Virus record (IMG/VR): IMGVR_UViG_3300044445_000196
Length of the DNA: 64,000 bases
Origin: an uncultured virus (IMG/VR IMGVR_UViG_3300044445_000196)
Taxonomy: Duplodnaviria; Heunggongvirae; Uroviricota; Caudoviricetes
Strand: one strand, 5' to 3'
Part shown: positions 1 through 61,860 of the stretch, one piece after another
How the letters are laid out: every line of letters begins with the position of its first letter
Position numbering within the stretch: position 1 is the first letter of the stretch
Notes under the pieces: model-generated
The model's input: only the letters and a program-made list of their open reading frames with translations
Databases searched by the model: none
What the model was told of the DNA's origin: nothing
Program-made: the position numbers and the translations under genes

Positions 1-436
1 GGCTGGCCATCACCTCGCGCACGTCCCACCCGTGCCGTCCGCGGTCCATGCCATTCACGCGGAGGCGTTCGAGGTCCTCGGTGGCCTGCGTGACGAGCTC
101 GTCGTTCGTGTCGCCGTTGTCCCAGTTGCTGTCGGTGTACTGCAGGTCGATGAGCTCGACGTCGCCGGTGGTGGTGTTGGTGCCGTTGGCCGTGATGATG
201 GCGAGGGAGGGGTTCTCCCGGGCGTGCTCCGCGAGCGCGGCGAGCATCAGCTCACGTGTCTCGGCGCGCGTCATCGGGCGGTCGTCGCGGCCGGCGAGGA
301 CAGCATCCACCGCCGCGTGGTGGCTGGCGGGGGCGAGGGTCGCCTCGGGTGCGGTGTGCTGCTGGACGCCGAACTGGCCTCCGGCTGTGCGTGCGGTTTC
401 CTGCGCGGCTTTGGCGGCGGGGCTGATGTCGGTCAT
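1..436 (-). CDS. Tagged hypothetical protein, runs off window start
   Basis: Hand translation MTDISPAAKAAQETARTAGGQFGVQQHTAPEATL; class B motif at 444-453. Confidence 0.85.
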   Translation of the reverse strand, partial: MTDISPAAKAAQETARTAGGQFGVQQHTAPEATLAPASHHAAVDAVLAGRDDRPMTRAETRELMLAALAEHARENPSLAIITANGTNTTTGDVELIDLQYTDSNWDNGDTNDELVTQATEDLERLRVNGMDRGRHGWDVREVMAS

Positions 437-459
437 ACCGACCATGTGCGCGGCCCGCG

Positions 460-1266
460 TCAGGGCTGGGTGAAGCGGAGGGTGAACGGGGCGCCGGTGT
501 CGTTGCGTTCCATCTGCTGGGTCGGGTTCGTGTAGCGCGCAGCGGCCCAGAGCACTTCGTGGTCGTCGAGGACTCCGCTGCCGGCACGGTTTCGTCGACC
601 GGCGGTGGTGTGGATGGCGACCGCTTTGAGGCCCTCCCGGCCTTCCTCGTCCCAGTCGAGCTCGACGGCTGCGAAGCCCTGCTCGCGGGCCACCTGGGCG
701 AGGTAGCGGGTGGTGGCAGTGTCGATGTCCTCGCCAATCTCGCGGGAGCTGCGGCCGCGAGTGTTCGTGCGCCACTCCTCCTCGAGCGCGGTGATGCGGG
801 CACGGGTGCCTTCCTTGCTCACGTCGAGGTGCGCGTAGAGCCCGTCCAGCTGGAAGTCGGCGTCCGAGACCCGGCCCCCGAGGTCGACGGATGCCTCCTT
901 GTGGGAGGCCTCGGCGCTGTCTGGCATGTAGGTTCCACCGCGCAGGGTGCCGGTGTACTCGGCGGCGAAAACCACACCGTCGGAGTCCTTGGTGATGACG
1001 AAGCGGAGCGCGTCCGCCGTCGGGGGTGCATCGGCCCACAGCTGCGACACCCGCTGCTCGGCGATCTGCGCCTCCACCGCTTCGAGCTGCGCATCCAGAC
1101 CGGCGCGGACGGCGAGGAGGTCGTTCAATCGCTTCTGGTTCGGCGTCGGCTCGGTGACGATGAGCTCGGGGGCACTGTGCTCCTGTTGGCCGAACTGGCC
1201 GTTGGCGCGTCGGGAGGCTTCGACGACGCGGCGGTAGGCGGCGTCGGCAAGGGGAGTGTGTGACAT
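460..1266 (-). CDS. Tagged hypothetical protein
   Basis: N-term EASRRANGQFGQQEHSAPELIV. Confidence 0.85.
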   Translation of the reverse strand: MSHTPLADAAYRRVVEASRRANGQFGQQEHSAPELIVTEPTPNQKRLNDLLAVRAGLDAQLEAVEAQIAEQRVSQLWADAPPTADALRFVITKDSDGVVFAAEYTGTLRGGTYMPDSAEASHKEASVDLGGRVSDADFQLDGLYAHLDVSKEGTRARITALEEEWRTNTRGRSSREIGEDIDTATTRYLAQVAREQGFAAVELDWDEEGREGLKAVAIHTTAGRRNRAGSGVLDDHEVLWAAARYTNPTQQMERNDTGAPFTLRFTQP

Positions 1267-1280
1267 GGGGGTGGGTCCTC

Positions 1281-2339
1281 TCAGCGGGTGACGCCGTGCT
1301 CGGCGGCGAGGGCGGCGAGGGCCTTCTTCGCCTCGCCGGCGGTGATCTTCTCGGCCTTGCGTTGGCCCTTGATGGCGAACTCGCCGCGGACGTAGTCCAG
1401 GGGCAGGCTGTGCTTGGCGGCGACGGCGTGAGCGATCTCGTCGATGGCGCGGTCTTCGTGCTGCTCACGCTCGTCACGCTCGGCGCTGGGTGCGCCGTAT
1501 CCGCGCCAGCCGAGCTTGTCGGTGGCCCACACCACGGCGGAACGTTCGGTTTTGAACCGCTCGGTGTTCCGCCACGTTTCGGGGCCCTCGCCGTTGTCTG
1601 TGCGCACGACGAACTCGGAGCCGTCTTCGGTGAGTCCGTTTTCGATGCGTTTGGCGTCGCGGGCGACCTTCGCCTGGGCGCGCTCCTCGCGCTCGGCCTG
1701 CTGACGCTTCTCATCCGCGCTGAACATGGTGGTCGGGCGACCGAGCACCTCGACCGGCGCCGACGGGAAGCACGTTGTACAGGCGCGTTGACCGGCGGCC
1801 TCGACGATGGCATCCTCGTCCATGCCGGAGTATTCGGTCAGCCACGCGAAGCGCGTCAGCTTCCCCTCGCGGTTGCACGTCGAGCACGACATGCCGCTAT
1901 GAACGTGTCCTTGCGGGCCGGGAACGAGGAAGGCGCGGGTCCAGCCGCCGCGGTAGTCGTACTCGCCCTCGTAGTAGTCCTGCTCCTGCTGGATGGCGCG
2001 GACCTGGTCGCGGATCTCGGTGAGCTTGGCGTTGTGCTCGGCGATGCGGCGGCGGTAGTAATCCGCCTGCCCCTCGTATCGCTCTCCCGCCTTGTCGACG
2101 CCCGCGAGAACGTCTTCGTCGCGCTTCAGCTCCCGCTCCGTCCAGACGTACGGTGCCATCGCTTTCGCCTCGTCGAGCATCAGCTCGTTGAGCTTGCCGT
2201 CCACCTCTTTCGGTTCCCACGAGCTGAGGTCGGGGCCTGCGGTGAGAGCCATCTCGGGTGCGGAGTGGTCCTGGACGCCGAAGCGTCCGCTGCTCTGCCG
2301 GGCGTCTTCCCTACGAGCGGTAATGGTGCCGTCGTTCAT
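1281..2339 (-). CDS. Tagged protein with coiled coil and putative Zn-binding domain
   Basis: EDARQSSGRFGVQDHSAPEMAL; HVHSGMSCSTC...ACTTCFP. Confidence 0.85.
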   Translation of the reverse strand: MNDGTITARREDARQSSGRFGVQDHSAPEMALTAGPDLSSWEPKEVDGKLNELMLDEAKAMAPYVWTERELKRDEDVLAGVDKAGERYEGQADYYRRRIAEHNAKLTEIRDQVRAIQQEQDYYEGEYDYRGGWTRAFLVPGPQGHVHSGMSCSTCNREGKLTRFAWLTEYSGMDEDAIVEAAGQRACTTCFPSAPVEVLGRPTTMFSADEKRQQAEREERAQAKVARDAKRIENGLTEDGSEFVVRTDNGEGPETWRNTERFKTERSAVVWATDKLGWRGYGAPSAERDEREQHEDRAIDEIAHAVAAKHSLPLDYVRGEFAIKGQRKAEKITAGEAKKALAALAAEHGVTR

Positions 2340-2357
2340 GGGATGCTCCTCGAGGTG

Positions 2358-3572
2358 TCAGGGCCGGTCGTCGGCCACGACATCCACATGCGCGGCGAAG
2401 GCGGGCTTGTGGACCCCTGCGACCTTGTCGAACGACCCGTACCCGAGCTGGTCGTCCAGGCGCGCGGGCCGGTCCTCGTCCACACCGATGGTGTACTCCC
2501 CCGTCAGCTGCACGGTGTGCCCGCGGCCGTTCCACGGGTCCTGCAGCAGCAAGTGCGGTCCGTTCACTGTGACGGTCCGCGGGGTATCGCCGTGGGTGGA
2601 GTACGAGCTGAGTGCGAGCTCGTTCGGGTCGGTGTAGGTCAGCAGCCGCAGGCGCCACTGCTCGGCGGCCTGGTATTCGGCGTCGAGGGAGGTCTCGGCG
2701 ATGAGTTCGCGGATGGCGGCGGCGTTCTGCTCGTTCCACGGGACGCCGGCGTCGGAGAGGGTCTTCTGGAACAGCTTCTCCATGGCGGCGGTGGGGCCCA
2801 TCGGGTCCTGGGCGTTGCCGTCGCTGTCGGTGCAGTCGTGGCAGGTGGGGTCATCGCCCCACGTTCCGCCGTGGCGGTCGCAGAGGGCGTCGGGGTTGCC
2901 ATCGGTCAGGGTGTACGCCTCGCCCATCGCGGTGGTGCAGGTCGGGCAGACCACCTCGTCGCCCCACTTGCCGCCGTGGGTGGCGCAGGTGGCGGAGCTG
3001 ATGGAGCGGCTGGCATCCTCGAGCGCCTGGCCGAACGCGTCGTCGTCCGCGGCGGCGGGCAGCTGGATGAGGGCGGTGCGGTTGTGGGCTGCGAGGTCGC
3101 TCACGAGGGTGGAGTCGTCCCATTCGCGGACCAGTTCGCGGAGCTCGTAGGCGACGTCGTCGTCGAACTCGTCGGCTCGGCGGCCGAAAATCTCCTCGAC
3201 AGCTTCGTCGACACGGTCGGCGTAGGAGTCGTCGTCCTCGAACCGTTCGATGATCTCGTCCAGCGGCTCCTCGTCACCGCGGAGGTACGCGTCGAGCTGC
3301 TCGGTGGTGAGCTGGTCGTCGTACTGCACGTAGTGCAGTGACGGGCGCCAGGTATCCCCAGCGCTGTCTTCGATGTGCTGGCGGGCGTGCTCGAGCGCTT
3401 CGGTGTCGTCCGCCAGGGCGCGTTCGATGTTCGTCAGCGCCGAGGTGCGAAGGTCGGGCTCGGCGAGGACGAGCGTCGCTTCGGGGGCGGAGTGCTCCTG
3501 GGTCCCGAACTGACCGGCGGAGGTGCGCGCGGTCTCGCGCGCGGCGGCCGCGGCGTCGTTGATGGCGGTCAT
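2358..3572 (-). CDS. Tagged acidic protein with two CxxH-GG-x-WGD-x3-CxxC repeats
   Basis: ETARTSAGQFGTQEHSAPEATL; internal Cys/His repeats. Confidence 0.85.
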   Translation of the reverse strand: MTAINDAAAAARETARTSAGQFGTQEHSAPEATLVLAEPDLRTSALTNIERALADDTEALEHARQHIEDSAGDTWRPSLHYVQYDDQLTTEQLDAYLRGDEEPLDEIIERFEDDDSYADRVDEAVEEIFGRRADEFDDDVAYELRELVREWDDSTLVSDLAAHNRTALIQLPAAADDDAFGQALEDASRSISSATCATHGGKWGDEVVCPTCTTAMGEAYTLTDGNPDALCDRHGGTWGDDPTCHDCTDSDGNAQDPMGPTAAMEKLFQKTLSDAGVPWNEQNAAAIRELIAETSLDAEYQAAEQWRLRLLTYTDPNELALSSYSTHGDTPRTVTVNGPHLLLQDPWNGRGHTVQLTGEYTIGVDEDRPARLDDQLGYGSFDKVAGVHKPAFAAHVDVVADDRP

Positions 3573-3573: not shown

Positions 3574-4524
3574 TCAGGCCTTCTTCCGGTTCGTGAGCCA
3601 GGCGTTCAGCGCCGCGGTGAGGGTGGGACGGTGCTTCTCCTCGAACCCGACGAGGGCCTCGTCGCCGGGGGCGATGTAGCCGTGGCTCAGGGTGGCGGTC
3701 GGGGCGAGCTCGCGGCAGATCGCCACCATCTCGGCGTCCGAGGGCGTTTTTCCACCGGCGGCCGCGGCGTACGCGACCGGGCGACCGGCGATGCCGCGTG
3801 AGGCGATGAGGTCCTTGTCGGAGATGAGGATGCCGGTCTGCTTCACGTTGGTCAGCAGCTCGTGGGGGTTGGCTTCCCAGAACGCGTCGTGCATCCGCCG
3901 GCGAACGATGGCGGGGGTGTACTCGTCGTCGGTGAACTTCTGCTCGACGGGGAGGTACACGTGCGTGTCGTCGTCATGGATGTCGCGACCGTCGGGGTTC
4001 TGCGCGGCCATGAGACTCATGAACGCCTCGCGGTGACCGGCGTAGCCGTAGTTCACCGGGTCGAACTTGGCGCTTGCGATGACGGTCAGCTTGCCGTCGA
4101 AGGTGTCGCGCCAGGTGTCGGCGTGCTCGTTCCAGGTCACATCGTCGTCGGGTTCAACCCATCCTTCGGTGGGCATGACGGCGTCTTCGTCGGGGTCGGT
4201 GTAGCTGGGTTCGTCGAGGACGTACGGGGTGAGCCCGTCGCCCTTGTTGAGGAGCGCGACGGTGTCGCGGACCACGTCGTCGCTTTCGTCGTCGGGTATC
4301 CGCAGGTGCGCGCGGGCGCCGGCGAGGGTGGTGGGCACGTACTCGCTGGCGGTGTCGTCGTAGAGGTAGACGACGGGGCGATCCGGACCGTCGGCGCTGA
4401 CGAGAGGCGTGCCGCCGAGATGGAGGGTCGCTTCGGGTGCGGAGTGTTCCTGCTCGCCGAACTGGCCGGTGCGCTGGCGGGCGGTCTCGCGCGCGTTCGC
4501 GGCGGAGTTGCTGATGTGAGTCAT
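3574..4524 (-). CDS. Tagged acidic hypothetical protein
   Basis: MTHISNSAANARETARQRTGQFGEQEHSAPE; class B motif 4532-4541 fixes start. Confidence 0.85.
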   Translation of the reverse strand: MTHISNSAANARETARQRTGQFGEQEHSAPEATLHLGGTPLVSADGPDRPVVYLYDDTASEYVPTTLAGARAHLRIPDDESDDVVRDTVALLNKGDGLTPYVLDEPSYTDPDEDAVMPTEGWVEPDDDVTWNEHADTWRDTFDGKLTVIASAKFDPVNYGYAGHREAFMSLMAAQNPDGRDIHDDDTHVYLPVEQKFTDDEYTPAIVRRRMHDAFWEANPHELLTNVKQTGILISDKDLIASRGIAGRPVAYAAAAGGKTPSDAEMVAICRELAPTATLSHGYIAPGDEALVGFEEKHRPTLTAALNAWLTNRKKA

Positions 4525-4543: not shown

Positions 4544-5092
4544 TCAGGCGTTGTCGAGCGCGTAGTAGGCGGCGGTCTCGGTGGTTCCCTCCACCGGGAC
4601 GAACTCGAGCTCGTCAGTGGCGTCGATGTCGCCGCGGAATGCGCCGGCGACGCGGACGATGTCGCGCGGGTCGCTGCGGTACTCGCCGTCATCGTCGTCG
4701 TCGTCGCCGTACCGGTCCGCGAACAGCGCTGCGCCGGCGTCCAGGGCCTCGTCTTCGCTATCGGCTTCGACGATCTCCACCTCGTGGTCGTCGCCTTCGA
4801 TGACCCAGACGAGCGCCTCCCCCGGTTCCTGTGGTCGGGGCATCTGCTCGACGTTGGCGCCGTCCGCGGCCGCGTCCGCGGCGTGCGCGGCGCAGTAGGC
4901 GGGGTCGCGCTTGGAGCGGTGCCCGCGGGCGATGTCGGCGAGGCGGAACTGGGCCTGCGCGCCGCACTCGGTGCAGGTGGGGCCTGTGGGGAGGGTCGCC
5001 TCCGGGGCGGAATGCTGCTGAGCGCCGAACTGACCGGTGCCGGTGCGGGCGTTCTCGCGAGCGGTGACGGATGCGGCGTCGATGTGGGTCAT
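4544..5092 (-). CDS. Tagged acidic protein with small Cys/His finger
   Basis: ENARTGTGQFGAQQHSAPE; CTEC...YCAAH; poly-Asp; class B motif 5100-5109. Confidence 0.85.
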   Translation of the reverse strand: MTHIDAASVTARENARTGTGQFGAQQHSAPEATLPTGPTCTECGAQAQFRLADIARGHRSKRDPAYCAAHAADAAADGANVEQMPRPQEPGEALVWVIEGDDHEVEIVEADSEDEALDAGAALFADRYGDDDDDDGEYRSDPRDIVRVAGAFRGDIDATDELEFVPVEGTTETAAYYALDNA

Positions 5093-5911: not shown

Positions 5912-6523
5912 TCAGTCCTGCCCGAATCCGTAGTCGTTGAGCACGGCGTAGGCGGAGGTGAACAGGACTCCGTCACGGGTGGTGACGTAGGACGGGTCGG
6001 ATTCGAGCTGGGTGAAGACGTTGGCGGTGTAGAAGCCGCCGTCGGCGTCGAGGTCGTGGTCGGAGACGTGACGGAACTCCACCCGACCGTCTGAGAAGAA
6101 GGCGTCGGTGTTACCGAAGCTGCGCACGCGAACCTCGTTCCGCAGCGCCATCTTCATCTCGTCCGCTTCGCTCTCGTCGAGCTCCGCGAACGCGTTCTCG
6201 AACTGCTCGCTGATGTCGTCATCGGAGACTTCGTAGACGGCGCGGACGCCCTCGTCGGTGCGGCGGAAGGTGATGGTGTCCTCCCGCCAGGTCTCCTCCT
6301 CGGGGCGGCCGATGCCGGCCTCGAAGACGTTCATCTCGACGGGCTGACCGTCGGGAACGACAATCCAGAGGTTCGCGCGCCGGTCACCGGTGTTGGGGCT
6401 GTTGATGATGACCGGGGCGGCCTCGCTGATGGCGAGCTCGGGGGCGGAGGCGTTCTTGGTCGCGAACTGACCACCGCGGTCGCGGCGGACGTCGGCTTCA
6501 CGGAACGGTGCGTTCGATGTCAT
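5912..6523 (-). CDS. Tagged acidic hypothetical protein
   Basis: DVRRDRGGQFATKNASAPELAI; class B motif 6531-6540. Confidence 0.8.
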   Translation of the reverse strand: MTSNAPFREADVRRDRGGQFATKNASAPELAISEAAPVIINSPNTGDRRANLWIVVPDGQPVEMNVFEAGIGRPEEETWREDTITFRRTDEGVRAVYEVSDDDISEQFENAFAELDESEADEMKMALRNEVRVRSFGNTDAFFSDGRVEFRHVSDHDLDADGGFYTANVFTQLESDPSYVTTRDGVLFTSAYAVLNDYGFGQD

Positions 6524-16075: not shown

Positions 16076-17020
16076 TCAGTGGGCAGGGGTGGGGACAGCC
16101 GCCTCTCGCGCGCGGTCGGGGGCGTGGTGGTAGGAGGGGCAACGGTGCCCGGCCAGGCGGTCGGCGTACACGTAATTCCCGCAGTCGTGCATCTCCACCT
16201 GGAACGTCGGCGCCTTGCGCTTGACGAGCGCGTTGTACGCGCTGCCGAGGGACGGCGCGCTCATCATCTCCTCGTACGTGTCGGGATCGACGTGGTAGCC
16301 GTAGACGCGACCCTGCAGGTTCATCACCAGCTGCTCGTCGTGCGGGTTGTAGCCGACGCCGTGGATCCAGGAGGAGTCCACCGTTTTCACCTTCACGCCC
16401 TGCGCTGCCAGGCGCTCCCGGCGGCGCTCGAGGATGTCGCGGACCTCGCTGAGCCCGCGGGAGGGGCGGCGGGCCTCGAGCGAGGCGAGGACGGACTCGG
16501 CGACGTACGCGCCGTGCTCTTTCGGCATCTGCACTGCGGAGACGGAGTAGCGGCCGCCTCCGTGGCTGGTGACGCGGACGTGGCCGGTGACGGGGCCGTG
16601 TGGGGTGACCGCTTCCACGGGGACATCGAAGGTGGTGCCGTGCTCTTTCGCGTACCGGCGGATGGAGGTCACCGAGGGCATCCGCACCTCGGTGTCCGCG
16701 CCTTCGTAGCGGCGCAGCATCGAGCGGGTGCCGGAGGCGCCGCGCTGCGGCATGACCTCGTACTGGCCAGCCTCCGCGATGCTGTTCGTCCGCTCCCACC
16801 ACTTCTCGGTGTCGTCGGTCTCGGCGAGCTTGAACTGCGGTTGGGCGGGGACGAACCCGAATTGCTCGAGCTGGCGACGGCGGGATTCGAGCAGGGACTC
16901 GGTCGTGACGGCGGCGGGGAGGGTCGTCTCGGGGGCGGTGTGCTCCTGGGCGCCGAAGGTGCCGTTCTGCTGACGTGCGGCCTCGCGGGCTGCCCGGTGG
17001 TGTGCGCTCATCATCGTCAT
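16076..17020 (-). CDS. Tagged protein with C-terminal KTSC domain
   Basis: EAARQQNGTFGAQEHTAPE; VDSSWIHGVGYN...SAPSLGSAYNALVK; class B motif 17028-17037. Confidence 0.85.
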   Translation of the reverse strand: MTMMSAHHRAAREAARQQNGTFGAQEHTAPETTLPAAVTTESLLESRRRQLEQFGFVPAQPQFKLAETDDTEKWWERTNSIAEAGQYEVMPQRGASGTRSMLRRYEGADTEVRMPSVTSIRRYAKEHGTTFDVPVEAVTPHGPVTGHVRVTSHGGGRYSVSAVQMPKEHGAYVAESVLASLEARRPSRGLSEVRDILERRRERLAAQGVKVKTVDSSWIHGVGYNPHDEQLVMNLQGRVYGYHVDPDTYEEMMSAPSLGSAYNALVKRKAPTFQVEMHDCGNYVYADRLAGHRCPSYHHAPDRAREAAVPTPAH

Positions 17021-24300: not shown

Positions 24301-24517
24301 GCACGAGGTCGGTCTTCAGCTTCTGCACGCCGGCGGTGCCGCGGTACAGGTTGGCGAAGCTCGTCGCCTGTTCCTTGTTCGTGACCTCCCAGTAGCCGCG
24401 GGCGACCGCGACGAGGGGGGCAATGCGGGAGGACGCGAGCTTGCGCGCTCCGGAGCCGCTGATGGCCCCATAGCTGTCCTGGTCCCAGGGGTTGGGGGTG
24501 AAGTTCTCGATGGTCAT
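21371..24517 (-). CDS. Primase-helicase replication protein (DUF3854-like Toprim plus P-loop helicase)
   Basis: QYRP...KY, VTEGLLKG, VAFDGD, LGIDDY; Walker A GPKGAGKS, Walker B IWIIDD; class A motif 24526-24535 sets start. Confidence 0.85.
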   Translation of the reverse strand: MTIENFTPNPWDQDSYGAISGSGARKLASSRIAPLVAVARGYWEVTNKEQATSFANLYRGTAGVQKLKTDLVRLVAPEDEDMLAMPWFSVSAVVEAGTAAKAGLYQYRPATPVVREDGKPAKYMFFPGQSMVIDLHPATPVEWTESANSVLVTEGLLKGDSALTAVLLDAGITVEELSVVFEATGAVISTAEARLRLQALMLKVPAQLRTVVATSGSVTTWEGRAADWRKVGLRDKRVIVAFDGDLAENAMVWRETEKFFRFVRDNKGKPSLLKLFSAEVAAAQISAGMDPADKLGIDDYLAHIGTWTSMQDLLSADLPPKPNAGEATAIAGDWRVHPQNDGITQEYVEQLNSNTGMTTGSWVTRARVGGRLLSHVESRRPTEGEIFNGVVDSSQPMRLEDSSCEIEIALLDRNQDIDDTPTRYRVLGPATLMSTPPQDWVRHAIQLPNEVLAHPDWPPRKGLDWLGAIKANKRDKVQNAVAWNTMGWVPVPNGQPAFIVGTQVLAASEHDEKQTRIGVTEKTLPRASKFGVIDEWGTLDLEQYKAQVAKDIRDVVRVVVENGFWKNRATAVAVLCAMFRPTIPKHPGTTLYFVGPKGAGKSYTASFVMKPWQQTPGTWTGSQLPGSAGDTFGAHESSVSLAPIWIIDDLAPQTDRRKAEQQASDLEAIIRAMFNNTAKRRLDGRTMEQRDVANPIAVLCVTAENPPTVPSIQDRTLVFNVPSQAFDDSADGGDHGAWREEELLHLCDVDGAPARLAAAMIRFWHQDDTGFGATWADRQAQLNSVFNDGKKVAFEVLNDEHGIEKGEAARFVGQVSSLGLTLNVLYRLAEWAGIDPDEPVMRALDSEDGYARELYGLAAEGILRARSTTPGSALLKALSGLMSTGKAHLRNPTTPGAPPYTVRAGGEDVGGVDVASLNQALGWEFDAKAATWVPKGTAIGYFGRKGTEEVALFDLSAAFKEAQRSYPELIPHGQTAKQSWGSVYAEKLALPGGGRSDTMAVRTSLGAPGSEVTSASRFSGIPVLAEKLFAIAHDGIVLDDTESAKTES

Positions 24518-46331: not shown

Positions 46332-47252
46332 TCAGTCGATGACGGGGGTGAGCTCGGCAACGGCGCGGGCGTACTCCGCAGCCGCCTCCGCGTCCCACTT
46401 CTCCCGCGCCGAGGCCGCGGCCGCGGCCACCTCCGCATCAGCGGCCGCGGTGCGGAGGCGAGCGCCTTCCGCCGCGGAGACGGCGAGGGTGTCTCGCGTC
46501 ACGGCGAAGCGTCCGCCGCCCAGGTCAGTGAGGCCGGCGGCGGTGGGGTCGCTGATGTTGGAGGAGGCGAAGCTGATGTCCTCGTAGGGTGCGATGAGCC
46601 ACCCGTCCCCGTCGCTGACCTCGACATTCTCACCGTTGCGGGTGGCGCCGTCGATTGTGAGGTGTGGGCCCTGGTCGCTCCACTCGAACACGAGCGTGTC
46701 TGCCTCGTCCGGCATGCTCGCGCGGATGCTGAGCGCAGCCACCTGCTGGGAGCGTTCACGCTGCACCCGCCATGCCTCGGCCGTTTCGTCGTGGTCCCGG
46801 ACGGCGTCGGGGAAGGAGCCGTCGCGGGCGGTGTCGGGCTTGCGTTCCCACACCAGTGCACCGTCGCGGCGTTCGGTGAGGAAATCGGGTTTGTCGTCGT
46901 CTCCGTCGTATCCGGTGAGGATGTCCCCGACGTCGTCGAAGTCTTCGTCGTGGGTGACGTCGTTGCCTTCCGTGTCCTGCGCCTCGGTTACGGACCAGAA
47001 GCCGTCACCTTCGTCCTCGAGGACGATCCTGTGCACCCCTTCGGGGGCGGCGGCGGCGAAGGCACTCTCGGCTCTGTCCATCATGAGGTCGTGGAGGGTA
47101 TGCACGCGCGCGTTGACCGCATCCAGGTGTGGGTAGGTCGGGCCGCTCGTCAGCTGTGCTTCGGGTGCGGTGTGCTCCTGCGCCCCGAACTGGCCGGTGG
47201 CGTGGCGGGCGTTCTCACGGGCGTGTGCGGCCGCGGCGTTGATGTTGGTCAT
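46332..47252 (-). CDS. Tagged acidic protein
   Basis: ENARHATGQFGAQEHTAPE; class B motif 47260-47269. Confidence 0.85.
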   Translation of the reverse strand: MTNINAAAAHARENARHATGQFGAQEHTAPEAQLTSGPTYPHLDAVNARVHTLHDLMMDRAESAFAAAAPEGVHRIVLEDEGDGFWSVTEAQDTEGNDVTHDEDFDDVGDILTGYDGDDDKPDFLTERRDGALVWERKPDTARDGSFPDAVRDHDETAEAWRVQRERSQQVAALSIRASMPDEADTLVFEWSDQGPHLTIDGATRNGENVEVSDGDGWLIAPYEDISFASSNISDPTAAGLTDLGGGRFAVTRDTLAVSAAEGARLRTAAADAEVAAAAASAREKWDAEAAAEYARAVAELTPVID

Positions 47253-47277: not shown

Positions 47278-48036
47278 TCAGGCGCACGTGAGGCGCCAGT
47301 GCCCGGTCAGTTCGTTGCGCTGCAGTCCCGCTCGGGCGGGGTCGGGCAGGAGCGCCGCGAGGTTGTCGATGGCGCTGACGTTCTCGCCAGCCCCGAGGGA
47401 GGCGTCGGCCCGGCCGTCACGACGGATCACCCCGGCGACGTACAGCCGCCCGTCGGTGAGATCGGGGGCGAAGTCGAGGGCTTCGACGTCGTGCGTGAAG
47501 GATTCGCGGATGCCGTGAACAGCGGCGTTCTGCTGCGCGTCGAGGGACTCCTGCCAATCGGCGCGCGCGGTGTACGCGGCAACTTCCGCCGCGTTCTTGC
47601 GGGCGAGGTCCCAGCGGTTGATGCGGTCCCAGCCGTACTCGTCCTCCTGGTCCAGCACGAGGTCACCGTCGAAATCTTTGTAGGGCTCCCCGAGCTCGCT
47701 GAGCTCGGCGTCGATGGCGGCGAAGTCCTCGCGGGGCATTTCCTCCCCGTCCTCGTCGTATCCTGCGCGAACGCGGAGGTGGGCGGCGGGGCTGTCGATC
47801 TCGTAGTTGACGAACAGTGCGCCGCGGGGCATCGCTGCGTCGATGTGGTCGAGGAGGGCCTCGGTGTACCTTTCGCGGGCGCGGTCGACTCGCGCGTTCA
47901 GGTCAGCGAGGTGCTGCGGGATGGCTGGTGGCGCCAGGCCCAGCTCGGGAGAGCTGTGCGCGAAGACGCCGAACTCTCCGTTGCGTCGACGAGAGGCTTC
48001 GCGTCGGGCGGCCAGCTCATCGGTTACATCTCCCAT
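47278..48036 (-). CDS. Tagged acidic protein
   Basis: EASRRRNGEFGVFAHSSPE; class B motif 48044-48053. Confidence 0.85.
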   Translation of the reverse strand: MGDVTDELAARREASRRRNGEFGVFAHSSPELGLAPPAIPQHLADLNARVDRARERYTEALLDHIDAAMPRGALFVNYEIDSPAAHLRVRAGYDEDGEEMPREDFAAIDAELSELGEPYKDFDGDLVLDQEDEYGWDRINRWDLARKNAAEVAAYTARADWQESLDAQQNAAVHGIRESFTHDVEALDFAPDLTDGRLYVAGVIRRDGRADASLGAGENVSAIDNLAALLPDPARAGLQRNELTGHWRLTCA

Positions 48037-48726: not shown

Positions 48727-49659
48727 TCAGGCCGCGTCGGCGAGCTCGCGCTCGGCGGCGTCGATGCGCCGTCGCACCTCGGCCATGACGTACGGGCTGT
48801 TCCAGGTGCCGGGGTCGTTCTCGTTCTTGTACTTCGCGAGCTTCGGGTAGATGTCTTCGATGATGAGCGAGGGGGTGGTCCGCTCACGCGGCAGGGTCGC
48901 ACGGATGCTGACGTCGGCGTGCTCCCACGAGTCGTTCACGTGCACGTCGGCGTTGAACGTTTCGAGGAAGACCTCTTTCACGGTCGCCTCGTGCTCGTCC
49001 AGCCATGCCTCGTAGCGCTCCTGCGGGGTGCGGGTGTCGCCGTCCTCGGCGGTGTCGTCGCCGAAACGGTGGTCGGCGTCCCAGAGGAAGTTTTCGGTGA
49101 CGTTGACGTCGATGTGGACTTCCGTTCCGTCGCCACCTTCATCGTCCCGTCGAGCTTCGATGTAGCTGACCTGGAAGTCGGCGTCGCGCGCCCACTGCTC
49201 GACATCTTCGAGGGGCAGTTCGTCGTGCTCGCTGAGGTCGAGGTACTCCTCCGCGGTGACGATGTCGCACTCGGAGAGGCTGAGCCCCGCGGCGTCGAGT
49301 TCGGCGGGGGTCCGGGCGGTGCCTTTGTGCCACCCGACGATGGTGCCGTGGCCTGCGGCGGGAACCGGGACCTCTGCGAAGCCGGTGCCGTCGTCGGCAG
49401 CTGCCCGGACGGTGAGGGTGACCGGTTCGTCCTCCGCGTACCGGTGCGCGGCCGCAATGGCCTCCGCGAGTGGTGCGCCCTTCTCCCCCGTGTGCACGAG
49501 CGCGTCGCCGGCGTAGATCCGGTAGGTGGTGTCCTCGAGCGCGGCGCTGGCCGCGAAGATCGCGAGCTCCGGCTCGGTGTGCGCCTGGGCGCCGAACTGG
49601 CCGTTGGCCTGGCGGGCGGTTTCGAGGTTGCGGAGACGGTTAGCGTCGAAGTCGGTCAT
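48727..49659 (-). CDS. Tagged acidic protein
   Basis: ETARQANGQFGAQAHTEPE; class B motif 49667-49676. Confidence 0.85.
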   Translation of the reverse strand: MTDFDANRLRNLETARQANGQFGAQAHTEPELAIFAASAALEDTTYRIYAGDALVHTGEKGAPLAEAIAAAHRYAEDEPVTLTVRAAADDGTGFAEVPVPAAGHGTIVGWHKGTARTPAELDAAGLSLSECDIVTAEEYLDLSEHDELPLEDVEQWARDADFQVSYIEARRDDEGGDGTEVHIDVNVTENFLWDADHRFGDDTAEDGDTRTPQERYEAWLDEHEATVKEVFLETFNADVHVNDSWEHADVSIRATLPRERTTPSLIIEDIYPKLAKYKNENDPGTWNSPYVMAEVRRRIDAAERELADAA

Positions 49660-55676: not shown

Positions 55677-56219
55677 ATGGGTCGCGTGAGCACCCGAGAC
55701 GACCTGCTGAGCGGCGAACACCGCTCCCCCGCCGAAGTCACCCGCGTCATATCGCCGGGCCTGTACGCGTGGTGGGACGACGAGCAGGCCCTGCCCTGGC
55801 CGGCCGGCTTCCCCTCGGTCGACCAACGGCTCCCGGTCTACGTCGGCATCGCCGCATCGCAGAGCCTCGGGGCTCGCTTCGAGAAGAACCACCTTGCTCG
55901 CACCCGCGGTTCCGGTCTTCGCCGTAGCCTCGTCGGTCTTGTGGTCGGACAGCTGGGCCTCGAACCGCACTTGGTCCTGAACGACGCCTCCCGCCCGTCG
56001 AAGTTCACCCTCGACGAGGAGGGCGAGAAGTGCCTGACCGCGTGGATGCTCGAGCACCTGCGTGTGACCTGGGTGGAGATGGCACACCCGGGGCGGGCCG
56101 AGGAAGCGCTCATCGCATCGCTCGTGCCGCCTCTGAACGACATTCACGCGACGGGGTCGCCGTACCGCGCGGCGATGCGTGCCGTACGTCAGCGGGCGGC
56201 GTTCAGCGCTCGGAGATGA
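55677..56219 (+). CDS. GIY-YIG-like nuclease
   Basis: PGLYAW...VYVGIA...R...E..LI....PPLN. Confidence 0.8.
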   Translation: MGRVSTRDDLLSGEHRSPAEVTRVISPGLYAWWDDEQALPWPAGFPSVDQRLPVYVGIAASQSLGARFEKNHLARTRGSGLRRSLVGLVVGQLGLEPHLVLNDASRPSKFTLDEEGEKCLTAWMLEHLRVTWVEMAHPGRAEEALIASLVPPLNDIHATGSPYRAAMRAVRQRAAFSARR

Positions 56220-56841
56220 CCGTGTCGGCGTGGTCGCGGAAGCCCCACCACCGGTCGGTGTCGGACAGGGTGGCTCCAACCACCAGGCTCCCGCGCCACT
56301 CCGCCTCCCCCATGGACGTGAGCTGTTGACGCCAGAACTCCCGCTCGGGTATGGACGCGCGCTTCGTCTCCGCGACCGTCAGCGCCTGTTCGGAAACCCT
56401 CTCGAGCTCGGGGCCTTCGAGATCCTGGATCGAGCCGTCGTAGTCGAGGTGCTCGTAGTAGAGCGCGGCGACACCGCGGCGCATCCCGTCACGGAACTCT
56501 GCGGCCTCCTCGTCGTGCGACGCGAGCGAATCCGCGTCGCGGATCCAGGCGCGCGTTGCCGCCACCCGCTCCCGGCCCGCGACGCCGCGGGAGAGTTTGC
56601 CGTCCTGCACCGAGAAGACCAGCGGGTCGATGTACTCGTCGAAGACAGCGAGCCGCCCCCTCTTCACCTCGGTGACGTCCTCGCGGTCAATTCGGGGGTC
56701 CACCGGCGGGCGCGCTTCCCCGCCGGGCAGAGACGCAATCTCCGAGCGCCCGATGGCGAGCTCGGGTGCGCTGTGGTGCGCCTGCGCGAACCGCCCGGTA
56801 CGGCCGTGGCGGGGATGCTGGGGCTCGTCGAAGGAGGTCAT
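56203..56841 (-). CDS. Tagged hypothetical protein
   Basis: MTSFDEPQHPRHGRTGRFAQAHHSAPE; class B motif 56849-56858. Confidence 0.85.
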   Translation of the reverse strand: MTSFDEPQHPRHGRTGRFAQAHHSAPELAIGRSEIASLPGGEARPPVDPRIDREDVTEVKRGRLAVFDEYIDPLVFSVQDGKLSRGVAGRERVAATRAWIRDADSLASHDEEAAEFRDGMRRGVAALYYEHLDYDGSIQDLEGPELERVSEQALTVAETKRASIPEREFWRQQLTSMGEAEWRGSLVVGATLSDTDRWWGFRDHADTVISER

Positions 56842-56848
56842 GATCGCC

Positions 56849-56870: not shown

Positions 56871-56877
56871 AGGAGCC

Positions 56878-57573: not shown

Positions 57574-57594
57574 GGGCCAGCGGCAAGCTCTGCC

Positions 57595-58413: not shown

Positions 58414-58462
58414 GTATCGCTCGTCTCGTCCAGTGGCGAGATCGTAGCGACCACCTCCGACA

Positions 58463-59320
58463 TCACATCTTCGCGAGCGACTCCTGCACCATCCGCTGCC
58501 CGACGAGACGGTCGTGTGCGGCCTTCCGGACCGGCTCGTTCTCGCTGGTCGCGAGAGCTTCGACGACGTCCTGCGGGGTGTCAGAGCGGAGCGCGAGTCG
58601 GTACAGCGCGTACGTCAGCTCGATGTCTTCGTCGTCGTCGTCGTCGAGCCGGCGGTCGCGCGCGGCGATGCCGCGGAGGTCCGTCTCGGTCAGCTGCGGG
58701 TTGTCGATGATGTGGTGCAGGCGGTCCTCGCGCTGCAGCTCGTCATCGAGGACGGCGCGGCTCAGGTTCGGGTGCTTCCCGGAGTGGGTGATGCGCTGGT
58801 CCCACGCGCGGTCGACCAGGTCGGTGGGGCTATGCGGGTTGCCGACGACGCCGGTGAGCACGAGCCGGGATTCGGTGTACTCGGGGTGCGCATCGAGCGC
58901 GGCGTAGAACGTGTCGGGGTGGACGTTCGGGTGTTGCAGCGCGGCGATCCGGGTCTCCCAGTCGTACGCGCGGTCGGTGGTGATGGCGAGCTCGTGAAGA
59001 ACCGGCGGCGGGGTGTGAGGGTTCAGTGCCACCTCGTGTGCGGGCCCGTGGACGCGGTCTTCGGCGTGGATGGCGAGCAGCGCACGGTCGGTGGTGGTGC
59101 GGGCGCTATCAGAGCGCGCGGCGAGGCTCTCCCCGAGCGCCCAATGGGCGGCGCGGGCGTCGGGGTCGGTGACGAGGTCGAGGTACTGGCCGCGCATCAC
59201 CCGGTTGTGCGTGGCGATGTCGCGCTCAGGCGCAGCGAGGGTGACCTCGGGAGCGCTGACGGTCTTGGTGGTGAAAGTGCCGTCGGTGGCGCGGGGGTGC
59301 TCGCGGTCGTTGAAGCTCAT
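58463..59320 (-). CDS. Tagged protein with LRV-like helical repeats
   Basis: HPRATDGTFTTKTVSAPE; NPHTP/HPNVH/NPHSP/NPQL repeats. Confidence 0.85.
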   Translation of the reverse strand: MSFNDREHPRATDGTFTTKTVSAPEVTLAAPERDIATHNRVMRGQYLDLVTDPDARAAHWALGESLAARSDSARTTTDRALLAIHAEDRVHGPAHEVALNPHTPPPVLHELAITTDRAYDWETRIAALQHPNVHPDTFYAALDAHPEYTESRLVLTGVVGNPHSPTDLVDRAWDQRITHSGKHPNLSRAVLDDELQREDRLHHIIDNPQLTETDLRGIAARDRRLDDDDDEDIELTYALYRLALRSDTPQDVVEALATSENEPVRKAAHDRLVGQRMVQESLAKM

Positions 59321-59349
59321 GTGGTTCTCCGTGTTCGAGATGGCGGGCG

Positions 59350-59646
59350 TCAGGCGGCTTCGCGGGTGCTCCACCCGCACTTGGTGCAGGTGCCGCGGCG
59401 GATGGTGCCTTCACGGCGGCGGCCGGTGACGAGGGACTTCGTCAGACAGGGGTCCCGGTCTGCGTGGAGGGGGCAGAGCATTGGGGTGACGGTGCTGTCG
59501 CGATTGACCGCGCAGGCGCACCCCTTCTCCCGGACGAATGCGGGCGGTGCGGGCGCGACGTCCAGGCTCAGCTCGGGGGCGCTGTGCCGCTTGTCCGTGA
59601 AGGTGCCATTGCCAGCGCGGGGGTGCTCGCGGGTGTCGAAGGTCAT
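59350..59646 (-). CDS. Tagged small Cys-rich protein
   Basis: HPRAGNGTFTDKRHSAPE; CAC...CPLH...C...CTKC. Confidence 0.8.
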   Translation of the reverse strand: MTFDTREHPRAGNGTFTDKRHSAPELSLDVAPAPPAFVREKGCACAVNRDSTVTPMLCPLHADRDPCLTKSLVTGRRREGTIRRGTCTKCGWSTREAA

Positions 59647-59647
59647 C

Positions 59648-59998
59648 TCAGTCCTCCAGGGCGACGGTGATGGTGATGTCCCCGTCCTCGTCGGTGATGG
59701 TGAAGTCGGGGTCGGCGTCGAAGTCGGCGAAGGCGTTCGCAGTGTCGCGCTCGAAGATGACGGGGGTGGGCCCGCCGGTGGGGATGCCGCGGCCGTTGCG
59801 GTCGGCGTACCGGCTGAAGAGGAGCGCGTGCGCCTCGGGGTCGTAGTACAGGTGCGCTGTGCGCGCTCCGATGGGGGCGTCCTGGCGGATGCGGTCGGCA
59901 GCGTCGACGTGCAGGGGCGCTTCGGGGGCGCTCTGGGTCTTGTCGGTGAAGCGACCGGTGCGCTCGCGCGGGTGCGCGGTCTCGACGAAACCGCTCAT
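59648..59998 (-). CDS. Tagged small acidic protein
   Basis: HPRERTGRFTDKTQSAPE. Confidence 0.85.
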   Translation of the reverse strand: MSGFVETAHPRERTGRFTDKTQSAPEAPLHVDAADRIRQDAPIGARTAHLYYDPEAHALLFSRYADRNGRGIPTGGPTPVIFERDTANAFADFDADPDFTITDEDGDITITVALED

Positions 59999-60228
59999 GA
60001 GTCGAAGTCTTCGAGGTCGAGGAGCTCGGCCTCGTAGCCGCCCATGTACTCGTCGATGTGCGCTCCGGGGTTGGCGGCGCGGCCCTGGCGGGCGTCGGCG
60101 ACGCCGCGCTCGTGGGCGTCCTCTTCCGTCTCGGCGGACAGGTCGAGCTCGGGGGCTGTGTGCTGCTGCGCGCCGAAGCGGCCGCTGGCGTGGCGGGCGG
60201 CTTCTCGGGCGGTGTCGACGGTGGTCAT
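59995..60228 (-). CDS. Tagged small acidic protein
   Basis: EAARHASGRFGAQQHTAPE; class B variant CCTCGTACAT 60236-60245. Confidence 0.85.
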   Translation of the reverse strand: MTTVDTAREAARHASGRFGAQQHTAPELDLSAETEEDAHERGVADARQGRAANPGAHIDEYMGGYEAELLDLEDFDS

Positions 60229-60252
60229 GGCCACCATGTACGAGGCGCGCGC

Positions 60253-60606
60253 TCAGGCCTGGTCGGCGCGGACGATGTCGAGGATCTGTTGGAGCGCGGC
60301 GTCGGAGAGGTTGGCGAAGCGGTAGTTGCTGTGGCCGTAGGCGACGCCGTGCGCGCTCAGCTCCTGGACCATCTCCGAGCGACGGGCCTCGGCCGCCTGC
60401 TCATCCTCGGTGCGGATGAACATGGCCGGGCCCGCGGTGTCTGCCCGGCGCTTCTCGACACCCGTGGTCTTGTCGAAGGAGATCTCGCGGCCGAAGTACA
60501 TGACGCCGACGTTGACGCGTCCGACCCGAGTGATGGTGGCCTTCCGGGTGCGCCCGTCGTGGTTCAGGATGACTTCCTGGTCGAGGGTGAATCGTTCGCT
60601 GGACAT
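60253..60606 (-). CDS. Hypothetical protein
   Basis: GGAG RBS; class A motif 60647-60656. Confidence 0.65.
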   Translation of the reverse strand: MSSERFTLDQEVILNHDGRTRKATITRVGRVNVGVMYFGREISFDKTTGVEKRRADTAGPAMFIRTEDEQAAEARRSEMVQELSAHGVAYGHSNYRFANLSDAALQQILDIVRADQA

Positions 60607-60690
60607 CTGGTGCGCTCCGTTCAGGTAGTGGACGACTGCACCCCGTCCATGCGCGGGCGCCGCGGCCACCCGTGACACGAGCAGCAGTGG

Positions 60691-60888
60691 TCAGACGGCC
60701 CCCGACGCGGCGCGGACGGCGTCGGTGACGCGCCAGCTGTACACGTCGGGATAGAGGCGGACCTCCATGGGGAGCTGTTCGATGGCCTCGCGGATGACGT
60801 CGTCGAGTGGTTCGCGGGGGCGGTCGTCGGGGCGTCCGAGGGGGTAGCCGTTGGCGACGGTGGCTTCTTTGGCGTTGTCCTCGCTCAT
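60691..60888 (-). CDS. Small hypothetical protein
   Basis: ATGA-coupled. Confidence 0.5.
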   Translation of the reverse strand: MSEDNAKEATVANGYPLGRPDDRPREPLDDVIREAIEQLPMEVRLYPDVYSWRVTDAVRAASGAV

Positions 60889-61319
60889 GCGGCCACGGGG
60901 TACAGCTGGTCGGGTCCTGCCCACACTTCACGGTCCTCGTTGCACGGCCCGTCGTGCTCGCAGGCGAGGATGCACCAGTCGTCGTCCGGGCAGCTGAACG
61001 CGGCGGCATCCCCCTGGTCGGCGACCTCGTAGCGACCGTCGGCGCGCAGCCGCAGCATCCCTCCGAAGGTGGGGTCCCAGAAGATCTGGCTTGCGCGCAG
61101 CAGAAGACGGCGGGCGGCGCGGATGTCGGCGGTGGTCCACTCGGGATCCGGGTCGCGGCGGGGATTCGTTGCCGCGTCGGTGTTCCAGTGTTCCGCGAGG
61201 GCGTACGCCCCGAACGCGTCAGGGACCGTGAGCTGGTCTCCGGCGATGCGGAGACCGTTCAGGGCGAGGTTTGCGGGGACGGCGGGGTTACCCCGCTCGC
61301 TGTTGCTGCGGAACGGCAC
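60885..61319 (-). CDS. Hypothetical protein
   Basis: AAAGGA RBS; class A motif 61362-61371; Cys/His C-terminus. Confidence 0.65.
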   Translation of the reverse strand: MPFRSNSERGNPAVPANLALNGLRIAGDQLTVPDAFGAYALAEHWNTDAATNPRRDPDPEWTTADIRAARRLLLRASQIFWDPTFGGMLRLRADGRYEVADQGDAAAFSCPDDDWCILACEHDGPCNEDREVWAGPDQLYPVAA

Positions 61320-61395
61320 GAGTCGGTCCTTTCAGAGCCGCGGCGTGCGGCGTCCTGTGTCCCATGCGCGGTCCCACGTCGGGCACGTGCCCGGC

Positions 61396-61860
61396 TCAGT
61401 CGCGCAGGTGCGTGAGCGCGTGCTGAGCCCAGGCGTCTGTCCGGGCACGCCAGTGCTCGACGTCCGTTTCGTCGCGGGGTGCGCCGATGGCGTCGGCGAG
61501 GTCGGTGCGGATGTCGGGGGTGCAGGCGTCGTCGTCGCCGTCGTGGAAGGTGGATTCGATCTGCGCGGCCCACTGTTCGGCAGTGTCGCCGTGCTCGATT
61601 CGTGCTTCACGGAACGCTTCGAGGATGGGGTTGTCCTCGGGCGAGCGAGGAGTGAGGTCGTCGATGTCGCGCAGGTGCCAGGGGACGCCGGTGACGAGGG
61701 GCTGCGACGGAAGCGCGGGGCGCTCGGGCGCGGTGGCGCGCGGGTGGGCGGGGACGGCGGTGATGGCGACCTCGGGGGCGGAGGTCGCCTTGACGCTGAA
61801 CCGTCCGCTGCTCTCGCGCGGGTGGTCGGTGGGTGCCCAGGCGGTGATGGTGTCGGTCAT
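61396..61860 (-). CDS. Tagged hypothetical protein
   Basis: HPRESSGRFSVKATSAPE; class B variant CCGAGTACAT 61868-61877. Confidence 0.85.
   Translation of the reverse strand: MTDTITAWAPTDHPRESSGRFSVKATSAPEVAITAVPAHPRATAPERPALPSQPLVTGVPWHLRDIDDLTPRSPEDNPILEAFREARIEHGDTAEQWAAQIESTFHDGDDDACTPDIRTDLADAIGAPRDETDVEHWRARTDAWAQHALTHLRD

Follow-up and report, generated by a model that had tools for sequence, protein, structure and literature searches.

The stretch analysed here, 64,000 nt of the IMG/VR virus record IMGVR_UViG_3300044445_000196 (hereafter the window), carries 19 minus-strand genes whose products open with the same short peptide, which is referred to below as the tag. The tag was first noticed in the sequence as R-x3-G-x-[FY]-x5-[ST]-x-P-E-x-x-[LIV], lying within about the first 35 residues of proteins that otherwise mostly diverge. 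According to the original prediction, it is a sorting signal that loads its cargo into a transfer apparatus, either a conjugative type IV secretion system (T4SS) or a phage capsid.

The tag and the genes that carry it

A six-frame translation of the window was searched with the strict expression R-x3-G-x-[FY]-x5-[ST]-x-P-E-x2-[LIVM], and 18 matches were obtained, all of them on the minus strand; the 19th tag (start 56841), in which the spacing from R to G is longer by one residue, was caught by a looser expression. The 19 tagged N-termini were aligned (alignment A1), and a profile hidden Markov model (HMM) made from this alignment was run, with filters off, against the six-frame open reading frames (ORFs) of at least 30 amino acid residues. 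The same 19 sequences and no others were returned (E 1e-19 to 8.6e-13), and the next-ranking match in the window had E = 1.3; the list of 19 tags is therefore taken to be complete. All 19 originally predicted starts proved to be ATG codons, and the end of the tag falls at residues 26–37. Given the residue composition, 0.0034 strict matches per window were expected by chance, and none was found in fifty codon shuffles of the window. The claim of 19 minus-strand N-terminal tags, 19 copies per 64 kb on a single strand, was thus borne out, and the HMM that had been proposed as a check confirmed both this number and the bias of the tag toward the N-terminus.

The tag is composed of an M-T/S start, a short Ala/Arg-rich helix and the core R-x3-G-x-F/Y-x2-(Q/K)-x2-[ST]-A-P-E-x2-[LIV]; x-P-E was found in all 19 copies and A-P-E in 16 of them. 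Two sub-types can be told apart. The Q-type (12 of 19) reads M-T-x-I-(x)5-A-R-E-x-A-R-x3-G-Q/R-F-G-x-Q-x-H-[ST]-A-P-E, and the HPR/K-type (7 of 19) reads M-[ST]-x-F-[DN]-x-x-x-H-P-R-x3-G-x-F-x-x-K-x-x-S-A-P-E, or near variants of this. At the [ST] column, the 19 copies use TCC (six), AGC (six), AGT (one), ACC (five) and ACA (one), and for the invariant Gly all four codons are in use (GGC 10, GGT 4, GGA 3, GGG 2). From the switching between TCN and AGY codons and the free third positions of Gly, selection on the tag is at the protein level, which had also been claimed originally. The tagged genes are listed in Table 1 together with three replication and partition genes of the window.

Table 1. 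Tagged genes, and genes for replication and partition, in the 64-kb window (element, CCGCG[CT]ACAT or a one-mismatch variant, followed by N6-ATG)
Feature	Coordinates	Strand	Tag	Product (aa)	Upstream of start	Remarks
Tagged gene	1..436	-	335-436		CCGCGCACAT-N6-ATG	Q-type, A-R-x3-G-Q-F-G-x-Q-x-H-T-A-P-E; 3' end beyond window; full-length form P0012, 214 aa
Tagged gene	460..1266	-	1156-1266	268	SD-like GAGAGGA, no YACAT motif	Q-type
Tagged gene	1281..2339	-	2244-2339	352		Cargo in phrog_15500; tag-less homologue on Frondihabitans plasmid
Tagged gene	2358..3572	-	3471-3572	404
Tagged gene	3574..4524	-	4423-4524	316	CCGCGTACAT-N6-ATG	Structure modelled
Tagged gene	4544..5092	-	4991-5092	182	Element	Cys-x2-Cys directly after tag
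Tagged gene	5912..6523	-	6428-6523	203	Element	K-type (G-Q-F-A-T-K)
Tagged gene	16076..17020	-	16919-17020	314	Element	KTSC at residues 216-268
Tagged gene	30562..31206	-	31129-31206	214		Shortest leader; Y instead of F
Tagged gene	36228..37295	-	37200-37295	355	Element
Tagged gene	46332..47252	-	47151-47252	306	Element
Tagged gene	47278..48036	-	47935-48036	252	Element
Tagged gene	48727..49659	-	49558-49659	310	Element
Tagged gene	56203..56841	-	56752-56841	212	Element	HPR-type, one extra residue from R to G
Tagged gene	58463..59320	-	59237-59320	285		HPR-type, F-N-D-R-E-H-P-R-x3-G-x-F-x2-K
Tagged gene	59350..59646	-	59563-59646	98		HPR-type; basic; 6 Cys
Tagged gene	59648..59998	-	59912-59998	116		HPR-type
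Tagged gene	59995..60228	-	60139-60228	77	CCTCGTACAT-N6-ATG	Q-type
Tagged gene	61396..61860	-	61762-61860	154	CCGAGTACAT-N6-ATG	HPR-type
DnaE	17095..21240	-				Nearest relative a Micrococcales megaplasmid DnaE (42-44% identity)
Primase-helicase-like gene	21374..24517	-				Toprim-like DxD and Walker A GPKGAGKS read in the sequence; no Pfam match; divergent from the parA-like gene
parA-like partition ATPase (AAA_31/CbiA)	24620..26776	+				Plasmid indicator

The regions that follow the tag are unrelated to one another, as had been claimed: an all-against-all BLASTP comparison of the 19 regions gave a single pair below E 1e-3 (starts 48036 and 59320, 3.2e-4), and Pfam recognised KTSC in one protein and LRV, below threshold (E 0.006), in another, with nothing for the other 17. 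The cargo types named in the original prediction fared unequally. KTSC (start 17020) and the acidic character were confirmed, the isoelectric point being below 5.5 in 17 of the 19 tagged against 14 of the 47 untagged window proteins; LRV stayed sub-threshold, and the sigma-like cargo was not upheld, as the weak Sigma70_r3 match belongs to an untagged plus-strand ORF (28034–28912). The tag itself gave no Pfam match over residues 1–40 of the 19 proteins at E up to 0.01 and no match when the A1 profile was run against the PDB at E up to 10, nor did sequence searches of the PDB yield a useful match.

Homologues of the cargo encoded from 2339 show where the tag ends. On a Frondihabitans plasmid, residue 1 of the homologue (local alignment score 388) corresponds to residue 32 of the window protein, the last of the tag, and in-frame stop codons lie upstream of its start; mycobacteriophage homologues align from residue 37 onward only. 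Since both align only past the tag, the tag is regarded as an add-on; it is modular and matches no folded domain characterised in Pfam or the PDB, in keeping with the original claim. Tags were retained on orthologues with only 29–71% cargo identity. Identities in putative orthologue pairs were 119/210 for the tag core and 881/2021 for the cargo; some of these pairs are doubtful, and the result was left unused.

The protein encoded from 4524 was modelled with AlphaFold2 from a 6-row alignment (the protein and five homologues). The cargo blocks mostly reached a predicted local distance difference test score (pLDDT) of 85–95, and in the first 40 residues the block means were 36–52, with residues 1–6 and 20–37 below 50 and a helix at 6–18. 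Given this low-confidence model, the leader is probably flexible, low pLDDT from a 6-row alignment being a weak sign of disorder. Foldseek gave no match of the model in the PDB at E 1e-3 or better. In the ESM Atlas, no usable match was found by features, and by structure only sub-threshold rows (DUF7007, LPD3, PBECR1, portal fusions) were returned, which serve as leads only.

Twelve of the 19 tagged genes are preceded by CCGCG[CT]ACAT or a one-mismatch variant, spaced by six nucleotides from the ATG, and lack a Shine-Dalgarno (SD) sequence, for which an element 6 nt from the start leaves no room (Table 1). The other seven, which lack the YACAT element, lie close behind the preceding gene and have SD-like purine runs. 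No minus-strand copy of the element was found ahead of untagged gene starts in the window; an extra copy lies at 34301 (-), within a 1375-aa ORF. The element was also seen upstream of tags in metagenomic relatives, about half of which (by eye) read through it as A-A-H-M-x-x-M. On the Curtobacterium plasmid pS16 it takes the form CCGC[GA]CA[CT]A[GT]-N6/7-ATG and stands ahead of two untagged genes as well. Most of the tagged genes that lead an operon carry the element, which is probably a promoter class that yields leaderless mRNAs of a co-regulated set. Two polyA RNA runs were compared with positions 44000–62000 of the window, and in these polyA libraries no read matched.

Distribution of the tag and the replicons that bear it

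The A1 profile was searched against 1.84 billion cluster representatives, and 394 proteins matched at E 1e-3 or better; 150 of these matches were listed, and removal of five long repeat proteins left 145 representatives. Two of the five, the high-ranking matches P0003 (2220-aa low-complexity repeats) and P0065 (repeats with T-T-A-P-E-L), are repeat-driven false positives, and the E-value of such a short profile can therefore be inflated by tandem repeats. Among the 145 listed representatives, the match to the profile begins no later than residue 5 in 129, between residues 6 and 30 in 13 and past residue 30 in 3. Several of the late-starting matches show an in-frame M-T at the tag, which suggests mis-called starts. 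Ten representatives were looked up; most came from metagenomes, on contigs of up to 215 kb, and one, from RefSeq, belongs to Frigoribacterium sp. SL97.

The cargos of the 144 usable representatives fall into 74 BLAST components. No Pfam family was found in 133 of the 145; the remaining 12 carry SprT-like (3), LPD29 (2), pentapeptide (2), KTSC, LRV, ArdcN with M78, DUF7007 and Transglut_core3 domains (1 each). A single paralogous family was thus rejected as the origin of the tagged proteins, the cargos being unrelated both among the 19 by BLASTP and among the 144 with their 74 components.

The degenerate DNA pattern TTCGGNNNNCAGNNNCAYWSNGCNCCNGAR, a narrow probe that covers about 9 of the 19 window tags, gave no match in IMG/VR. 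In species genomes it matched 18 loci, about the chance expectation, with a true tag in one of them (L001). In metagenomes 36 loci were found. The HMM recognised tags in 23 of these at E up to 0.01, and still in 17 when E below 1e-6 was demanded, and as many as 5 tags stood at one locus; four of the 36 are syntenic with the window at 35–72% protein identity, and their tags are retained. L001 is a contig of a Microbacterium metagenome-assembled genome with a lone tagged SprT-like protein (tag at ~10048, minus strand), which adjoins type I-E cas genes (Cas3, Cse1, Cse2 and Cas7-like) and an RNase T-like exonuclease.

Matches were found in 11 of 401 sampled Microbacteriaceae genomes, and many in one genome only for G090 (6–7) and G288 (up to 15, at loose E); a further 400 genomes sampled across the class gave none at E 1e-4 or better. 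Complete plasmids with tags are pS16 of Curtobacterium (545 kb, 18 tags), pCPAA3 of Curtobacterium pusillum (567 kb, 13 tags), D40 of Curtobacterium (608 kb, 6 tags), a Pseudarthrobacter plasmid (418 kb, 5 tags) and an Arthrobacter plasmid (401 kb, 3 tags); the Frondihabitans plasmid (450 kb) has no tag. The tag is in this way the mark of a large set of genes on DnaE-bearing Micrococcales megaplasmids. When 45-aa tags were used as tblastn queries at E up to 1, nothing was found in 50,697 phage genomes or in plasmids, although this search is insensitive and missed five tag-bearing PLSDB plasmids. On pS16 the annotated coding sequence starts coincide with the tag, and 11 of the 18 tags lie in one array at 54.8–65.7 kb, all annotated as 'hypothetical protein'; most of the tags read in this array keep the first half only.

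The genes of the window include those for DnaE, SSB, NAD-ligase, a DnaQ-like exonuclease, an M23 peptidase, a PD-(D/E)XK nuclease and three orphan N6/N4 methyltransferases. DnaE shares 42–44% identity with DnaE proteins of circular plasmids of 375–608 kb from Curtobacterium, Pseudarthrobacter, Paenarthrobacter and Arthrobacter, against 34% with the best phage DnaE, and no DnaE relative was found in IMG/VR. No capsid, portal, terminase or tail gene was recognised in the 64 kb with Pfam or PHROG, and pS16 gave no match to the three Pfam models tried, Terminase_6N, Phage_capsid and Phage_portal. PHROG matches among the window genes were to the PurZ-like phrog_1211, phrog_2971 and Phage_ProQ_C_like. 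On these comparisons, the window looks like part of a DnaE-bearing megaplasmid and not of a phage. The stretch is represented in several leaf metagenomes. A listed ORF of 1649 aa at 21371–26320 (-) is in part an artefact, its first ~600 residues being the Arg/Gly-rich antisense of the plus-strand parA-like gene.

Transfer genes, polyvalent proteins and the possible role of the tag

The tag was found beside transfer genes on several plasmids. Contig C2 of G090 (148.8 kb) is a plasmid, with RepA_C, insertion sequence elements and a type I restriction-modification system, and carries 7 tags on one strand at 92.9–116.7 kb. Their neighbours in this block include genes for M23 and PDDEXK proteins, an A24 peptidase, two T2SSE ATPases and FtsK/SpoIIIE proteins (610 and 1509 aa). 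Homologues in the window were found for the M23 and PDDEXK genes, for a thioredoxin reductase and for a KTSC protein, which is tagged on both. The coupling protein of pS16 is named 'type IV secretory system conjugative DNA transfer family protein' by PGAP, and tagged genes lie 2–4 kb downstream of the coupling protein in pS16 and pCPAA3. An FtsK/SpoIIIE protein of 1686 aa and an AAA_10 (VirB4-like) ORF above the Pfam cut-off are also encoded on pS16.

The coupling-protein orthologue of G090 (803 aa) shares 42% identity with the pS16 copy. It occurs in 3 of the 401 sampled Microbacteriaceae genomes, namely G090, G288 (on a contig with 11 tags) and G393, and in all seven multi-tag elements that were examined: pS16, pCPAA3, D40, the Pseudarthrobacter and Arthrobacter plasmids, G090 C2 and G288 C5 (about 11 tags). 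It is absent from the Frondihabitans plasmid, the one DnaE megaplasmid without tags. Tags were found in 7 of the 8 elements with a coupling protein. Co-occurrence with T4SS genes, which had been proposed as a check of the original prediction, was thus observed for the coupling protein. Complex prediction for the tag of G090 (45 aa, 21-row alignment) with the coupling protein of the same genome (803 aa, 3-row alignment) returned no answer (score 0.00) and so speaks neither for nor against binding. In a block common to pS16 (L086, 203–252 kb) and G090 C2 (L079–L081), with 40–46% identity, the coupling protein is grouped with a protein of 442 aa and a giant FtsK/SpoIIIE protein; the giant protein (1509–1686 aa) carries a HAD_SAK_2 domain.

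It has been proposed that conjugative elements or phages deliver polyvalent proteins together with their DNA, and zincin-like peptidases have been predicted to process them (PMC5512222). The other three long repeat proteins among the listed matches, P0005, P0031 and P0124 (1848–2155 aa), were matched by the A1 profile at several internal sites. The motif [FW]-x-[EP]-x2-H-P-R-x2-5-G-x-F-x2-[KSY] occurs 8 times in P0005, 4 times in P0031 and 6 times in P0124, at a spacing of 170–470 residues. P0005 has the Pfam domain ART-PolyVal, and copies of the motif lie at residue 209, ahead of the ART domain (249–403), and at residue 415. In the window, the string [FW]-[DN]-[ED]-x2-H-P-R-x3-G-x-F-x2-K is fully matched by five HPR-type tags (starts 56841, 59320, 59646, 59998 and 61860) and partially by those at 6523 and 31206, and the 12 Q-type tags keep only R-x3-G-x-F. 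We did not find this junction motif described in the main text of PMC5512222.

The same string is thus shared by the polyvalent junctions and the tags, and in both the motif stands 10–20 residues ahead of a globular module. The modules agree in size, with 170–470 aa in the polyvalent proteins and 77–404 aa here, and the repertoires overlap in ArdC-N, zincin and LPD29; among the tagged cargos, the polyvalent-type domains are ArdcN with M78, SprT-like, LPD29 and pentapeptide. The two differ in that the tag does not lie between domains. It is found at the extreme N-terminus of separately encoded single-module proteins of 77–404 aa and is extended by [ST]-A-P-E-x2-[LIV]; moreover, 12 of the 19 tags have A/x in place of H-P and Q in place of K. 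Because the HPR-type string is shared and the cargo domains include ArdC-N, zincin peptidases and LPD29, each tagged gene looks like one separately encoded 'junction motif plus module' of a polyvalent protein.

Judged from sequence and context, the tag may be a recognition peptide for the transfer machinery of the plasmid, and it is to this account that we tentatively lean. The leader would be a short linear peptide read by a common receptor of the DNA-transfer machinery, for which the co-occurring VirD4-type coupling protein and the giant FtsK/SpoIIIE ATPase beside it are the candidates. Accessory proteins, mostly acidic and in part equipped with domains of anti-restriction or protease type, would be passed by the receptor to the mating channel and would accompany the DNA into the recipient, which is what the polyvalent hypothesis proposes for the fused versions. 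In this form, the conjugative half of the original prediction is circumstantially supported by the plasmids with a T4SS coupling protein and by the polyvalent junction motif. A bolder proposal is that an actinobacterial conjugative apparatus uses the leader as a translocation signal of a novel type, N-terminal and conserved in sequence, by which dozens of mostly acidic establishment or anti-defence proteins, each encoded by its own gene, are sent into the recipient, and that the same peptide marks each module of polyvalent proteins for delivery or handling in phages and conjugative elements at large; this we consider rather doubtful.

Several observations weigh against recognition by the transfer machinery. 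Known T4SS protein signals are mostly C-terminal or internal, and the tag occupies residues 1–37. No recognisable T4SS gene lies in the 64 kb of the window, and MOB-suite typed all six named megaplasmids as 'non-mobilizable', no relaxase search having been made. G393 has the coupling-protein orthologue and no tag at E up to 0.05. Conversely, nine sampled genomes have a single tag match (E 8.6e-4 to 4.4e-15) and no coupling orthologue at E 1e-20 or better, and the best of these, in G001 (4.4e-15), is a true tag on an SprT-like protein. The association between tag and coupling protein is strong, yet the plasmids are related and shared ancestry of one lineage may confound it. Many tags of the Curtobacterium plasmids are without S-A-P-E, their second half, so that only the first half is universal. 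Finally, one motif per module in the polyvalent proteins exceeds what a single export signal would need and would fit processing or docking at least as well.

Since one motif per module argues for a per-module function, both of these explanations have to be kept in play. A docking peptide without export would tether the modules to a common intracellular partner, be it a protein of the host or of the plasmid or the DNA coming in with its SSB, for example in the recipient after early expression from CCGCGYACAT promoters. A low-confidence leader (pLDDT below 50 at residues 1–6 and 20–37) with few invariant residues is typical of a linear binding motif, one motif per polyvalent module suits docking of each module, and the dedicated upstream element suggests a co-regulated set; the tagged genes are also co-oriented with SSB, orphan methylases and acidic proteins, which recalls the anti-defence leading regions described in PMC11541004. 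However, the profile has no PDB match, and docking alone would leave the strict tie to coupling-protein plasmids unexplained; we regard this explanation as unlikely. Less likely again is a peptidase site that cuts polyvalent polyproteins and survives as a removable leader on single modules. The motif stands exactly at the polyvalent module junctions, processing by zincin-like peptidases has been predicted in print (PMC5512222), the tagged cargos themselves include SprT-like and M78 zincins, peptidases of the S53 and S1C families are encoded close to the tag array of pS16, and the P-E end resembles x-E cleavage sites. Nevertheless, no peptidase was common to the window, G090 C2 and pS16 in the comparisons made, there is nothing from which a single-module protein would have to be released, Curtobacterium tags can do without the S-A-P-E half, and a 30-residue low-confidence leader is unlikely to hold at least 74 folds inactive.

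Two further explanations are still harder to sustain. A role in nucleic acid or translation, as a 5' coding element for leaderless mRNAs, a nascent-peptide regulator or a functionless relic of polyprotein fission, could account for the 12 genes that start 6 nt past a DNA element without SD and for the common ATG-ACN start; however, both TCN and AGY codons occur at the Ser column, the third position of the Gly codons varies freely, the conserved residues lie 12–30 codons into the ORF, seven genes keep the tag behind SD-like leaders without YACAT, and orthologues with 29–71% cargo identity keep it as well; such a role we hold to be very improbable. To the capsid half of the original prediction, under which a prohead protease (there compared with those of phiKZ type) would remove a targeting sequence carried by the proteins of a large phage, in the manner of the T4 internal proteins, we give almost no credence. 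PHROG-family matches among several window genes, an A-P-E end compatible with S/A/G-x-E and the occurrence of polyvalent proteins in phages too (PMC5512222) would fit it. Against these stand the parA-like and primase-helicase-like genes without a structural gene in 64 kb, a DnaE nearer to that of megaplasmids than of phages, and complete relatives that are circular plasmids of cultured strains, pS16 being without the three phage models; the narrow DNA pattern in IMG/VR and the insensitive tblastn search of phage genomes were likewise empty. The window and its complete relatives are plasmid-like, and the capsid-packaging proposal remained unsupported.

Other candidates were tried and set aside. 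A Tat or Sec signal was rejected, and so was a leader processed by the A24 prepilin peptidase that G090 C2 encodes, as no hydrophobic stretch follows the motif in the 19 sequences; the cargos, moreover, are acidic soluble proteins. Mimicry of a kinase activation loop (F-G...A-P-E) was dropped, the tag being too short and nothing supporting it, and so was a pairing of Q- and K-type tags as transglutaminase partners, the basis of which was one Transglut_core3 cargo only.

Shared leaders on diverse cargo are a known kind of arrangement; what appears to be new is the present leader, with its carriers and its link to the polyvalent junctions. The T4 capsid-targeting leader is reportedly about 10 residues long, is carried by internal proteins and Alt of a phage with a prohead core, and is said to be removed by gp21. 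Like the tag, it is a short N-terminal leader on unrelated cargo with an x-E end; the tag differs in its 26–37 residues and plasmid-like context. The trafficking domains of polymorphic toxins (LXG, PT-VENN) are folded, span at least 100 residues and are tied to type VII, type VI or type V secretion systems. They also combine a conserved N-terminus with swappable C-terminal cargo, whereas the tag is a low-confidence peptide of ~30 residues and no toxin/immunity pairing was seen. Conjugative T4SSs co-transfer plasmid-encoded proteins, as reported for ParA, ParB, SSB, PsiB and others of pED208 (PMC8406263, PMC11288057). There, many plasmid accessory proteins reach the recipient, as would the tagged ones, and the tag co-occurs with a VirD4-type coupling protein; in the parts of those reports consulted, however, no conserved N-terminal signal is described for the pED208 substrates. 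Literature text searches, including HPRxxxGxF-type strings, HSAPE and the literature on Curtobacterium megaplasmids, did not retrieve a description of the tag.

If the tag were a delivery or handling signal, a rule one line long would suffice to pick out, from sequence, the accessory proteins deployed by giant actinobacterial plasmids together with their DNA. The rule would extend to polyvalent modules in phages and conjugative elements, and would serve as a searchable marker for injected effectors. To our knowledge, it would be the first defined protein-recruitment signal for conjugation of high-GC Gram-positive bacteria, and it would be portable as a tag. The system is accessible to experiment through the five complete tag-bearing megaplasmids of cultured Curtobacterium, Arthrobacter and Pseudarthrobacter strains, and the Frondihabitans plasmid, with neither tag nor coupling protein and with its tag-less cargo homologue, offers a natural negative control.

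Further genes of the window

A divergent homologue of adenylosuccinate synthetase is encoded at 51311–52624 (-). It matches phrog_1211, a PurZ-type family, at E 1.4e-58, and in the NCBIfam run, which covered the untagged window proteins only, it stayed far under the cut-offs, with 140 bits for PurA (402 required) and 25 bits for PurZ (300 required). An HD phosphohydrolase gene (41905–42591, +) lies 9 kb from it.

No family match was found for the 1375-aa protein encoded at 31216–35340 (-), which combines a signal peptide with several membrane segments and a long tail rich in Ala and Gly. It adjoins a DUF2637 protein (29703–30488) and may be a mating-channel or envelope component. The three N6/N4 methyltransferase genes lie at 6532–7638 (-), 37806–38999 (+) and 63301–63999 (-); no restriction partner was seen nearby, an arrangement that recalls the anti-restriction sets of mobile elements.

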